Assembly: GCA_964016885.1 (NCBI GenBank)
Contig: OZ024742.1
Location: forward strand, 333,436,001 to 333,500,000
Source of the DNA: Eledone cirrhosa
Lineage: Eukaryota
Direction of reading: 5' to 3'
DNA: 64,000 bases
This document shows, in pieces, positions 1,148-60,234 of the stretch. The first letter of the stretch is position 1; each line of letters begins with the position of its first letter. The notes beneath the pieces are model-generated. The model made no database searches, was not told where the DNA came from, and saw nothing but the letters and a program-made list of their open reading frames with translations. Both the position numbers and the translations under genes were made by a program.

Positions 1148-1360
1148 TAAAAAGAATTGTGGTAAGCAACCAGATGGACAATAACACACCAGAGTACTCA
1201 ATACTTAGGGTAGTAGAGTGGGAAATAGGAAAAAGTAAGATCCCGACGGCAGAACTCAAGCCGTTTCGACAGCTATTTCTGGACTAAATTAGAATTTTTT
1301 AGCCTGGCTAAAAAATTCTAATTTAGTCCAGAAATAGCCGTTGTTTCTTTTCACATTGCC
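1148..1360 (-). mobile_element. Short hammerhead-family element (family shared with 44566-44760 and 56520-56727), with a long internal hairpin
   Basis: Minus strand reads gtc-GAAA-cggc-ttgagttct-gccg-TC-ggga, followed by the family tail ccactctactaccctaagtattgagtact. Hairpin of about 36-bp arms centred near 1305. Flanked by (TA)n. Confidence 0.6.
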
Positions 1361-2245
1361 TATATATATATATATATATATATATATATATATATATATA
1401 TATATATATATATATATATATATATATATATATATATGTATATATATATATATATATATATATATATATATATATATATATATATATATATATATATATA
1501 TATATGTGTGTATGTGTGGACATATGGGTGTGTCGATATATGTATATATATATATATATATGTGTGTATGTGTGGACATATGGGTGTGTCGATAAATGTA
1601 GCTGCTTTTCTTTGACATGCAAACAGATTTTGACCGATCAACAATAAGCCGAACATAAAATATATCGAGTTATCAATGCTGAAAAGATCTCTCAGCTTAG
1701 GTACTGGACAAAGGCAAAAACAGAATTGATTTTCTTCACTTCCTTTCTTTAAACTTTTTTTTTCTTTCCCTCCTTTCTCTGTATTTCTCGGTATAATACA
1801 TTCCACATTATTTCGTTCTTTCGCTTATTCTTTTCCTGTCTTGAATATATATATAAGTATATGTATATATATATATATATACACATATACATATATATAT
1901 ATATATATATATATATATATACGTGCCATACTTTCACACACACATATATATGCTTCTGCGTCTGTGTGTTTGAGAGTGTTATATGATACGCAATATTGTA
2001 TGTTATTGTTGGTGTTTCTGATTCTAGAGTCGACGTTGTTGCTTTTGTTGTGTTTTGTGTACAAGTTAATTGTTTTGGTATCATTTTACGTTTTTTTTTT
2101 GTGAAGTATTGTTCTTATTTTGTTTCTATGGATATATTCTTGTTTTATTTTGTCAGATGTGTTGATGTCTTGTTGATGGGATTCTTGTCTCACAGAGAGA
2201 GCCTCAGGTAATAACTCACCCGTGTTTTGTGTGTGTGTAGGTGTG

Positions 2246-3130
2246 TATATATATATATATATATATATATATATATATATATATATATATATATATATAT
2301 ATATATATATATATATATATATATATATATATATATATTTATATATATATGTATGTATTTTTAACGATCGACTTTCGTCAAATCGGACCGAGGGAACAAT
2401 GTTTCCGTTGGTCTTTCCAATTGCTAATACTATCTATACATATATATATATATAGATATGTATGTATCCATGTATATATATATGTATATATATATATATA
2501 TATATATATATATATATATGTATGTATGTATGTATGTATATATATGTATATATATGTATGTATGCATATATATGTATATATATGTATACATATATATATA
2601 TATATATATATATATATATATATATATATGTATATGTATATATATATATATATATATATATATATGTATATGTATATATACAAATATCTGTATATATATA
2701 TATATATATATATATATATATATATATATATATATATATATATATATATATATATAAATATATATATATATAAATATATATACGTACACATATATATATA
2801 TATTTTCTTTTTTTTTACATATATATATAGGTATGTATATATATATATATAAATATATATATACATACATATATATACATATACATATATTTTTTTCATA
2901 TATATTGGTATGTATATATATATTGGTATGTATATATATATATATATAAATATATATATATATATATATATATATATATATATATATATATATATATATA
3001 TATATATATATATATATATATATATATATTTATATAATGATATATATATATAGTATATATATATAGTATATATATATATATATATATATTTACATACATA
3101 CATACATATATAGAGAGAGATATATAGATA
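2246..3130. repeat. Large compound (TA)n/(TATG)n microsatellite field
   Basis: Direct reading. Confidence 0.95.
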
Positions 3131-4285
3131 TAAATATCCATGTGCACGCGCACGAATACACACATAAACACACACTTTATCAGTCAATCTATCTCTCTCT
3201 CTCTCTTTATCTCTCTATCTCTATATCTCTCTCTCTCTATCTATTCATCTCACACATCGTGGTTATTCATATACTTCATGTTATCCTGTATTTAAACAGA
3301 AAGAAGAGTATCACAAATACTATGTACATATATCCATTCAAATACTTATATACATCACTATGACATACGGAAGAGTTAGTACGTGCGGATATTTTTTGCA
3401 TCTGTCTATATATACCTATACTCGCATGTATCTATGTATGTTTGTGTATATGTGTGTATGTAGGCAAGTATGTATGTACGTATGTATATATGTAATTAAG
3501 TATGTATATATATATATATATATTTATAGGTATATAAGTTTGTAATATTTGTATGCCAGTATATATGTATCAGTATTTATAACTATATATGCATATATGC
3601 ATTTTTGTCTCCATGTATGTAGCTGTATGTATGTATGTTTGTATGCATACGTATATCGGTGTATGGGTCTATGATTTTGTGTGAGCGTGCATGTCTTCTC
3701 TATGTGTAGTTTAAGAATCCTAATACTGTACCGTTGGTTACCGAATCAAAATATATACATAGAATCATAAATCACTCGCGATGACTCATAGTAATGTGTG
3801 TAAAATTCGAGGCGAAACGAAGGAATCTTTATTTTTTCTTTTGTGTGTGTGCTTACGTGCATACCAACGTACACATTCATTTCCACGCAATCCTATATAT
3901 GTATGCACATATTTATACATATTTACGCAGTCATGATTATCTCTATATACGGATATAAATCCATGATCAACTATATATATATATATGCGTGTGTGTTTGT
4001 GAATGTGTGTCAGTGTGTCTGTATGTATACACATACACTGACACACATTCACAAACACACACGCACACACACACACAAATATATATATATATATATATAT
4101 ATATATATATATATATACATATATACATATATACATATACACACATAATTACATATACATATGTACATATGGGTTATATCGAATTAATAATAATGTGAAT
4201 TCGCTTGAAAACTGCCCGATTTGAAGCTGTGCCGTGCCGGTGAATGTTCATCCCCTGCCTGTTCATCACTGGCTTTGAGGAACAA

Positions 4286-4323
4286 GCAACATGTTTCTGG
4301 GTCATTACCCTTCATCAGGACTG
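4286..4323 (-). ncRNA. Minimal hammerhead ribozyme motif (weak stem I)
   Basis: Minus strand: CTGATGA-a-gggt-aatg-accc-a-GAAA-catg-TT; stem III ACATGT is palindromic. Confidence 0.55.
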
Positions 4324-57371: not shown

Positions 57372-57555
57372 GGCGGTGGATTGGCAGTATCGGTAGAGGG
57401 TCGGACGCCATGCTTTCCAGCATAGTTACGTCCCTTTTCGATCTGAGTTCAAATCCCGCCGAGGTTGACTTTGCCTTTCATCCTTACGGGGTCGATAAAA
57501 TAAAGTACCAGTAATGCACTGGGTAATTGCTGGCCTTGTACCTAATGTAGAAACA
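57372..57555 (+). mobile_element. Full-length Meta-type SINE with 15-bp TSD
   Basis: attattattttataa at both 57357-57371 and 57556-57570. Confidence 0.92.
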
Positions 57556-57815
57556 ATTATTATTTTATAACATCAATTCTTCGTGTACCTTTTACCGACT
57601 TTACCTATTTTCATCCCTAAAATAATCTGTTCATTCATCATACTCTTTCCATTCAAAACTGAAATCTGCCTTCCTCTACCGCTAAATTAAAGTTCTATTA
57701 CTACTATTCTACCATCTTGACCACTCACTACCTTTCTATTAGTCAATTCAAAACCTGTTCCCAAACAGACCTATTATATTTAATCTTTGTTGGTTGTTTT
57801 CAATAAACAAATATA

Positions 57816-57954
57816 ATTCTTTCTGAAGACAGTATATATATGTGTAGGTATGTATATTCCCTCTGATAGTTTGTAAAAATTTTACATAGATCTATATGAT
57901 ATACATACCAACACAAACATATATATCTTAGAAACGATCGTAAAATGATGAATT
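57816..57954 (+). ncRNA. Hammerhead with an approximately 100-nt stem II (mirror copy 57073-57210, minus)
   Basis: ttt-CTGAAGA(57823-57829)-long hairpin-GAAA(57931)-cgatcg-TA-aaa. Confidence 0.7.
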
Positions 57955-60234
57955 TTTTAATATAAGGAACTGTTTCTTTGTTTTTATTCATTATTTTTAT
58001 TAATTTATATATATATATGTGTAGATTTAAAAATAAAATACGACTATCATTACCCACAACATTTATAGCACCATAACAGACTCCTCTAAACTACAACGAC
58101 ACTGTCTTAAACACAAATCCTATTCTCACCACTAATGACTCCATCACCGCAACTAATTCCCACAATACAATCAACATCCCCTCTTCCACTCGGCACCAAT
58201 TGTTATACCTTCACCAAGTTCACCACCACATTAACATAATTATTACCTCCTCTGTCAAATAACGACAAAATGAAGCTATTTCTAGACATTCTATAATATA
58301 CCAATTCTTCTTTCTTCACAAACAATGCTGTTAAGTCTGTAACGATTTCACATCATTCAAATGCACAATTAGAAAGATAAACTAGTACATCACCCGTTGT
58401 TTTACCAACGGTATAAGCAATACTATTTCATGTTTCCTAAATTATCTTTAAAACAGCGATATTAGTGCATCAGATATAAACATATATATATTACTTCCCT
58501 GATCTTTGGTCTCCATGATGAAAGCTTCACCCTCCCGCACACACACTTATCCGAACCGGGACGATTTATGTCTATGTGTACGCGTTTATATACGCAGGCA
58601 TATATTACATATATGGAGACACAAACACGCGTACACACAGCAATTAATACATATATAACATGTGGGTATGTATGTGTATGTGTTTATGTGTGTGTATCAG
58701 TACCATTTATAATAATCTCTGGTAACTGAGGAAGTGATGAAGGAATCAACACTAAATATTCTTAATAATTCAGTATTGAAAGTGTTTTTCCTTCTCAATA
58801 TATAACTAATAGCCATCAATACCTGTGACTTCCAACACTTAATTGATAAAGCCAGTTAAAAACTTGTGCTACGTCCAGACTTAAAATGTGTTTGTGTGTG
58901 TGAGTCTATGTATATGTGTGTGTGTGTGTCTGTGTGCGTGTGTGTGCCTGTGTATATGAATCTGTGTTCGTGTGTGTGTAAATATATATACAGACATATA
59001 GTCATATAATAGAAATGTTTATCTCATGAATATTTCTGGGTTTGATTATTTTTTTTAACATAAAATAATCAAAATCGACTTGTACGTTAAATTTACTCGT
59101 TTACGAATCGAACACATGCAGCGTGAATCCATAGGTAAGATATTGTTATTCCTTTGAGCAGACCAGGAATAAATCATTTAATTACAACATGTAAAGCGGA
59201 AGTAATCTAATACCCGGGAATAGTTGTGTGATACAGGAAGGAAATTGTGTTAACATACAACTTAGTTGACCAATAAAACAATGATAATATAGGTGTGTGC
59301 CATTCAGAGATGGAGCTGTTAGTATTGAATGTAGAAAGGTTTTTTTTTATATGAAACATTCTGTCGCTACACTAAGCACACATACATCTATGTATCTAGT
59401 TATCTGTATATTTAAAAATACCTGCATGAATATATGGAGAAATGCTTACATACACAAAAACAAGTATATACACACACACACACACACACACACACACACA
59501 CACATACATATATATATATATATATATATATATATATATATATATATATATATATATATATATATATGTGGGTGGGTGTGTAAGTGTGTGTGTATATATA
59601 TGCATGTATGTGTGTGTACAACCATATATTATATATATATATATATGTGTGTATGTGTAAGTGTGTGTGTGTATGTATGTGTATGTATGCATCCATGTGT
59701 GTGTGTGTGTGTGTGTGTGTGTGTGTGTGTATGTGTGTGCGTGAACACCTGTAACGAAAATAAACTAAATGTAGCAGTATAACAACAGAAGCCGTATGAA
59801 TGAAGATTTGAAATACACCATATGTGTGTTATTTTTGTCTTCGTACCTTTTATATAAGATTTCTTTTGTCCTCATTACTTGGTAATTTAAGTTTCTTTTT
59901 TTCTCTTATTACTTAGTTATATACGATTTCCTTTCATTTCTCACTGCAATAGAAACAAATATATAAAATACAATACTAATAAAAGCATAGAAAAGTATAT
60001 TCAACAAAAAAAAATAGCCAGACTTGATGAGATTTGCGACGTCCGTATGTTGAAAGATACATAGCTGTAGAAATGTCTTTAGGACACACTCAGTACTAAA
60101 GAACTAGAATAGTTTTCATCTTCAAATATCATAGGAGAACATAACCAAATTAGATGGTGAGAAATGCAAATATGACGCTTGTCAAATATAAGAAAATAGA
60201 GATACAACGGTTGGTGTGTGTTTTTTCAGTACTA

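Follow-up and report, generated by a model that had tools for sequence, protein, structure and literature searches.

Short palindromic elements in (TA)n tracts of Eledone cirrhosa as truncated, head-to-head 3' ends of Penelope-like retrotransposons

Penelope-like elements (PLEs) typically insert with an inverted, 5'-truncated copy and a tail at one end, an arrangement described in Craig et al. 2021 (PMC8557442), where the formation of their tandem and inverted structures is also named as an open question. Members of the Hydra clade insert into (TA)n, carry hammerhead ribozymes and possess CxCX5C and CxxC/CxH motifs that are diagnostic (PMC8557442). Here we consider a stretch of 64,000 nucleotides from the genome of Eledone cirrhosa (assembly GCA_964016885.1, contig OZ024742.1, positions 333,436,001 to 333,500,000), referred to below as the window, which contains nine elements with inverted arms. 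Eight of these, representing seven families, are 5'-truncated 3' ends of autonomous PLEs lying head to head in (TA)n, and the ninth appears to be a non-autonomous PLE-like element.

For a lizard PLE, Poseidon PAc of Anolis, Frangieh et al. 2024 (PMC11167929) report that the element's protein cuts and extends both DNA strands, that reverse transcriptase (RT) starts at two adjacent internal sites bounding the tail, that these start sites are the same on both strands and that the hammerhead is unneeded for insertion in vitro. PMC7229834 reports minimal hammerheads of the PLE type in the thousands for a coral and puts the number of hammerheads in axolotl at 126,247, and a 2026 preprint derives animal retrozymes from the pseudo-long terminal repeats (pLTRs) of PLEs (10.64898/2026.07.22.740005). 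An annotation of Octopus vulgaris includes 31 recently active Penelope-like families, and the words hammerhead and ribozyme are absent from the accessible part of its text (PMC13282606). Our literature search, with Repbase, subscription papers and supplements outside its scope, found no paper on cephalopod PLE hammerheads or on PLE twin priming.

The host genome is 3.0 Gb in size; the window has a GC content of 35%, and (TA)n tracts are abundant across it. Self-alignment recovered all nine fold-back or inverted-arm elements that an initial annotation of the window had described, with arms about 86-99% matched to their family references. They fall into eight families, named A (9224 and 35643, which are one family), B (27101), C (8157), D (19089), E (19681), F (44566), G (45058) and H (56885). 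Comparison of the last 650 nt revealed only short AT-rich patches in common between families, in keeping with the earlier description of mostly unrelated sequences, and none of the nine has an open reading frame (ORF) of its own, as had also been claimed. The bounds first given were kept for seven elements; D and H proved larger, starting at 19089 and 56885, respectively, their tails having been missed. The elements and their hammerhead motifs are as follows, with clade types that are provisional and explained below.

8157..8552: family C, Neptune-type PLE 3' ends head to head; left arm inverted and tail-less, right arm in sense with a tail of about 30-35 nt
8373 (+) and 8301 (-): family C variant hammerhead in both arms; core TTGAAAA, which is C3U/G8A, the family being mostly A13C
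9224..9789: family A, Neptune-type PLE 3' ends head to head; left arm inverted with a tail of about 52 nt, right arm tail-less
9598 (+) and 9470 (-): family A hammerhead with canonical core; stem III of 2 bp, non-palindromic
19089..19353: family D, Hydra-type PLE ends; left arm inverted with a 78-nt tail (19089-19165, beyond the bounds first given), right arm tail-less
19248 (+): family D hammerhead, with G5A in this copy
19681..20910: family E, probably a non-autonomous PLE-like element; 572-nt monomer head-to-tail, inverted tail-less arm at 19681-20162, 143-nt tail
27101..27637: family B, Hydra-type PLE ends; the fold lies at a short palindrome within the element, and the 96-nt tail is on the right arm
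27441 (+): family B canonical hammerhead with palindromic stem III; its counterpart at 27200 (-) has a stem I mismatch
35643..36077: second copy of family A, from a diverged subfamily; fold at the stem II hairpin of the hammerhead, right arm tailed
44566..44760: family F, Hydra-type PLE ends; right arm with a tail of about 78 nt, decayed hammerhead-like motif of which only the 3' half is present
45058..45735: family G, ends of an RT plus GIY-YIG PLE (Neptune/Nematis-like); left arm inverted with a tail of about 37-43 nt
45489 (+) and 45343 (-): family G variant hammerhead, core CAGTTGA (U4A, A6U)
56885..58005: family H, Hydra-type PLE ends; left arm inverted with a 135-nt tail (56885-57019), tail-less right arm extending further 5'

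The identity of seven families is given by their longer copies, which run upstream through a 3' untranslated region (UTR) into an ORF for a GIY-YIG endonuclease. At loci with an endonuclease exon, the arm known from the window lies downstream in sense in 14 of 15 cases for family A, 6 of 6 for B, 22 of 23 for C, 5 of 5 for D, 16 of 21 for F, 12 of 12 for G and 19 of 20 for H, counts in which several loci overlap a single insertion; for C, 19 of 20 loci at the ORF end have the arm downstream and in sense. The distance from arm to ORF is roughly constant within each of families A-D and F-H. In family C the 3' UTR ranges from about 1.0 to 1.55 kb between copies (L330-L347, the L-numbers denoting loci or stretches of the same genome); tandem repeats and (CA)n, present in L030 and L037, may lie behind this variation. 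A link to Penelope RT/GIY-YIG proteins had been claimed from the window and it stands, since the seven families continue in sense into such ORFs. The accompanying proposal of a non-autonomous, retrozyme-like population mobilised by these proteins does not survive for eight of the nine elements, which have coding parents, only family E lacking one among the copies examined. The initial annotation had itself named ordinary truncated Penelope ends as the outcome that would undo its proposal, and this is what these eight are. Its headline of a new swarm of mini-retroelements falls, the elements being by-products of a known class of retrotransposon.

Searches of Pfam gave RVT_1 (E 1e-10) and GIY-YIG for family G and the same two domains for A; GIY-YIG was found in C at 2.5e-7, with A, C and G all at E<=5e-4, and weakly in D and F. 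YIG.T, R, H, E and N are invariant in an alignment of the seven endonucleases, and an RT-like core is visible by eye in B, F and H, the C and D sequences covering the thumb or linker only. Families B, F and H show a CxCX5C linker before the C-terminal GIY-YIG domain, CxxC before the conserved E, and CxH after N, except that the H peptide ends before the CxH position; CCHH is absent from B, D, F and H, and RWK and DKT motifs also occur in B. Family D shows the Hydra motifs less completely, with a linker seen as partial matches in two copies. A CX4CxxC linker like that of Neptune is seen in families A and C, and the linker of G is reduced. Judged by motifs rather than from a tree, B, D, F and H probably belong to the Hydra clade and A, C and G to Neptune/Nematis; the endonucleases of B and H and the RT of F are putative assignments resting on motifs together with the seven-family alignment.

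Families B, F and H, and partly D, thus share both the motifs and the (TA)n target of the Hydra-clade PLEs (Craig et al. 2021, PMC8557442), and B and D also carry hammerheads in the 3' end. They differ in that the hammerhead of F is decayed and none was found in H, whereas canonical hammerheads are reported as universal in Hydra (PMC8557442), and in the thousands of candidate loci found here. A first look gave 1651 candidates for A, 1135 for C, 957 for D, 2688 for E, 3516 for F, 2165 for G and 2866 for H, figures that are not copy numbers, and genome-wide matches to exact patterns amounted to 1447 for B, 1696 for F and 672 for E, with 0 for reversed controls. With Neptune/Nematis PLEs the remaining families have in common the targeting of microsatellites, the inverted 5' copy and the tail; they differ in the variant hammerhead cores fixed within families C and G, and their tails are 30-52 nt long.

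The outer ends of the elements are closely associated with TA repeats. Of the tailed ends in the seven families, 175 of 201 are at most 14 nt from (TA)3, as are 120 of 130 of the tail-less ones, compared with 7% of random positions; the corresponding tailed-end count for family E (27 of 54) was excluded because the filter did not separate internal tandem junctions. One arm carries a tail, of 30-143 nt across families. Both features, the abutting (TA)n and the usual extension of one arm by a short tail, had been recognised from the window and are borne out. Distinct PLE families were also seen stacked side by side in one TA tract (L025-L029, L042, L070, L274 and others), and it is because different families pile up in the same tract that the density of elements is locally high.

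Long inverted arms, short copies devoid of ORFs and TA flanks would equally suit miniature inverted-repeat transposable elements (MITEs) or fold-back DNA transposons targeting TA repeats. Against this origin stand the asymmetric ends, with a tail on one arm, and the many single-arm copies found here, and the continuation into RT/GIY-YIG ORFs refutes it; we consider it to have next to no chance of being correct. Short PLE palindromes beside TA tracts can be mis-annotated as MITEs or as microRNA (miRNA) hairpins.

The palindromes range from about 0.2 to 4 kb in length, the long ones taking in coding DNA. In family B, 23 -/+ pairs among the first 100 matches listed are spaced from 4 nt to 4.7 kb apart, and L252 holds a 4-kb palindrome of this family with endonuclease coding sequence in both arms; in family F the central loop varies between copies, and the fold point of the short palindromes is not fixed. 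Short fold-backs without coding sequence thus form the lower end of a single truncation distribution.

How the two arms became joined can be approached through their junctions. Outside family E, both outer ends could be classified at 111 junctions (rows with an unclassifiable end were left out and the loci are partly score-ranked), and 106 of these unite a tailed with a tail-less arm, three being tailed/tailed and two tail-less/tail-less. The tail-less arm reaches further 5' in 42 junctions and the tailed arm in 21, the arms being equal in 43, a class that is inflated because the C and F queries spanned the fold; the lengths of the two arms vary independently of each other. At 10 junctions the tailed arm is shorter than the tail, so that the arms do not overlap and no palindrome is formed. 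When all families are taken, an overlap of 1-20 nt is present at 59 of 128 tailed/tail-less junctions. Three junctions fuse different families with no TA between them, namely H/A in L159, H/C in L149 and E with another Hydra-type element in L108/L153. Direct two-family PLE chimeras were noted in L159, L149, L108/L153, L017 and L026, some of them combining Neptune-type with Hydra-type elements.

An explanation that retains the same PLE parents is that the inverted arm arises when a single cDNA (complementary DNA) snaps back at a hairpin and primes itself, or through the self-priming from an antisense template that PMC3846280 proposes for PLEs of rotifers. It accords with the concentration of folds at hairpin or palindromic sites (stem II in 35643, an 8-nt palindrome in B) and with the variants, some private to a single copy, that the two arms have in common. 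However, cDNA primed at the tail cannot yield a longer tail-less arm, as seen in 42 cases, and snap-back cannot produce non-overlapping arms (10 cases) or cross-family junctions (3 cases). As a general account it is unlikely, and self-priming may be the source of some equal-arm, perfectly folded copies; the junction counts favour two independent primings over snap-back.

Our preferred reading, to which we attach a probability of about 85%, is that the eight elements are truncated PLE 3' ends joined head to head after both nicked TA strands had primed cDNA. The GIY-YIG endonuclease of the PLE would cut within (TA)n, the observed site of insertion, and one strand would prime at the downstream start site on the RNA, giving the tailed arm, while the other would prime 30-143 nt upstream and give the tail-less arm; the two fixed 3' ends are observed, and their priming is modelled on the in vitro work with the lizard PLE. 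Each cDNA would halt independently of the other, with hairpins and short palindromes, hammerhead stem II among them, as frequent stopping points, and the cDNA ends would then be joined, often through microhomology, to form the junctions that are seen. Early halts would generate the short non-coding palindromes and late halts structures of 2-5 kb with an ORF. The hammerheads would be the pLTR ribozymes of the parents carried along, intact, variant, decayed or missing according to family, and family E, with the same two-end signature, was probably mobilised in trans. Two internal RT start sites also define the tail in Poseidon PAc, where two-strand cutting and extension have been shown, as we infer them here; the lizard element belongs to another clade and has an AT-rich rather than a (TA)n target, and no head-to-head junction model occurs in the accessible part of that paper (PMC11167929).

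Several points weigh against double priming of PLE ends. Arms within one copy are closer to each other than arms of different copies in all eight families (0.038 versus 0.112 in F), so that the two arms of a copy usually share a source, unless they were made alike by later homogenisation. The similarity is also predicted by snap-back copying, with which the 43 equal-arm cases are compatible. Ten of the 23 family B pairs have one common 4-nt loop, and a self-propagating palindromic subfamily may conceivably exist. The cross-family junctions could stem from later deletion between adjacent insertions, and the strict pairing of one tailed with one tail-less arm is unexplained because the RT start sites of the lizard element did not differ between strands. 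Regarding the coding parents, the two B peptides matched no Pfam family, the H peptide from the endonuclease and the F peptide from the RT had no relevant Pfam match, and no autonomous partner was found for E. The junction counts bear on the open question of how PLE structures are formed and can be scaled to thousands of copies.

A hammerhead had been claimed for every element in the window. The whole motif is present in some form in five of the nine, with canonical core and stems only in 9224-9789 and 27101-27637, a point-mutated copy (G5A) in 19089-19353, and variant cores in 8157-8552 and 45058-45735; in the other four it is absent or truncated. The element at 35643-36077 lacks CUGANGA because its fold lies inside stem II, and no hammerhead was detected in 19681-20910 (E) or 56885-58005 (H), where there is no sense match with two core changes allowed. 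The short, often palindromic stem III that had been described holds for families B, C, D and G, where it is palindromic, and not for A. By family, CTGAAGA occurs in 38 of 50 copies of A and 41 of 44 of B, CTGATGA in 41 of 43 of D, CAGTTGA in 32 of 34 of G, and TTGAAAA in 84 of 89 of C, with GCAA in 57, the C count taking in a related family; the motif of family F is decayed. U3-A8 covariation and the U10.1-U11.1 mismatch are known natural variants according to PMC3088659, and U4A, A6U and A13C are unnamed in the accessible part of that source.

A strict type I scan yielded four motifs in the window versus one across 20 local dinucleotide shuffles, and 20 motifs in forty 10-kb stretches (400 kb) taken at round-number positions, versus one in 20 local shuffles. 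Stem III is palindromic in 14 of these 20, and a single array accounts for five of them. The motif is therefore above chance, and extrapolation gives roughly 1.5 x 10^5 strict hammerheads genome-wide, from hits that are clustered, in agreement with the large repertoire anticipated in the initial annotation. A check for stem covariation found four pairs changed on both sides in D and its relatives, two of them in the palindromic stem III, and two pairs in C and a relative, from hand-picked rows of related sequences with few independent events. Rfam gave no hammerhead among the 150 matches listed for the window, which are mostly sub-threshold miRNA models, and none at the gathering score in 13 loci.

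A very common repeat (window 12091 (-) and 40089 (-)) also has a well-formed hammerhead fold, with the core CAGAAGA (U4A), U-U at the base of stem II and a long stem III; it ends about 25 nt before (TA)n and gave 26 motif matches in the loci examined. Other hammerhead-like motifs lie in repeats near TA tracts at window 8026 (+), 18916 (+), 4318 (-) and 35483 (+), some with a broken stem I.

Family E stands apart. Its 572-nt monomers form head-to-tail as well as inverted arrays that have the same two ends, the tail being 143 nt long; among the first 100 matches listed, 13 pairs on the same strand are separated by 533-576 nt. None of 55 partly overlapping E loci runs into an ORF of its own, no hammerhead was found with two core changes allowed, with weak matches only at three and none from Rfam, and a search of two E loci and of L318 for tRNA genes found none. 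A search of sequencing runs with the E monomer gave no RNA run among the matches listed. The majority sequence of E is poorly built at its 3' end and the real copy L286 was used instead. A 43-nt match of 83% between the tail end of E and the tail-less end of B is AT-rich and was rejected as a partner link. In L026 a relative of E is followed by a canonical hammerhead; this locus is a chimera with another family and for that reason gives no evidence of a former E hammerhead.

Animal non-LTR retrozymes, as described in PMC7229834 and 10.64898/2026.07.22.740005, resemble family E in being non-coding and head-to-tail tandem with PLE-type ends. They differ from it in carrying a hammerhead and in their reported monomers of 150-450 bp, below 572 nt. 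Because it lacks a detectable hammerhead, E fails the retrozyme definition; with its monomer also too long, it is closer to the non-autonomous PLEs of the MRC1 type of Chlamydomonas, and a non-autonomous PLE-like element is the classification that its sequence suggests. The other eight elements differ from retrozymes in being non-tandem and in having coding parents. Elsewhere in the genome, L318:8434-10000 comprises at least four head-to-tail monomers of 311 nt, each with a canonical type I hammerhead and palindromic stem III as in retrozymes, with an inverted 5' arm at (TA)n and a 78% relative at window 46272-46425 (-); this appears to be a true retrozyme-like array.

That array, the tandem non-coding E family with no sense ORF upstream, and the high density of hammerheads are what can be said for many non-autonomous, hammerhead-driven families mobilised by Penelope proteins. 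For A-D and F-H this is refuted, since seven of the eight families continue into their own ORF; family E has no detected hammerhead, and the fold point of the short palindromes differs from copy to copy. We judge it very improbable as an account of the window.

With double priming of truncated PLE ends as the preferred reading, the biology of the window is already known, and what it adds is new members of established PLE clades and one non-autonomous family; the variant hammerhead cores and the junction statistics are its modest new parts. The families supply natural variants of the hammerhead core that can be assayed. A wider idea, which is doubtful, is that a library of about 10^5 hammerheads with fixed unusual cores (U3-A8 with A13C; U4A with A6U; U4A alone) still cleaves as dimers or aided by protein, and that an obligatory two-site, two-strand priming, able to use two RNAs, operates across PLE clades and also spreads the ribozyme-less 572-nt family. 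A dispensable ribozyme fits here because hammerheads are intact, variant, decayed or absent in families that are all at high copy number.

The window contains further features related to these families, together with an insertion in the H element.

1150..1341 (-): further copy of family F, tailed and with a short fold-back
6346..6685 (+): decayed fragment coding for the C-terminal part of a Hydra-type GIY-YIG domain; relative of family B, 56% identity over 87 aa
35479..35516 (+): minimal type I hammerhead, stem III palindromic; it belongs to a different repeat and lies some 100 nt upstream of (TA)n, with no parent traced
37327..37873 (+): diverged copy of family C, extending further upstream
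56587..56726 (+): further copy of family F, 5'-truncated and non-inverted, ending at (TA)n
57372..57555 (+): high-copy insertion in the H element, seen as a gap in the H alignment, with a duplicated A/T-rich target at its flanks

The last of these is a putative short interspersed nuclear element (SINE), resembling those of octopods. A non-LTR retrotransposon in fragments, comprising pieces of RT and zf-RVT as well as an upstream ORF, was also observed at about 29540-34740 (-) and 46560-47310 (+), the two parts matching in inverted orientation with 77% identity over 406 nt.

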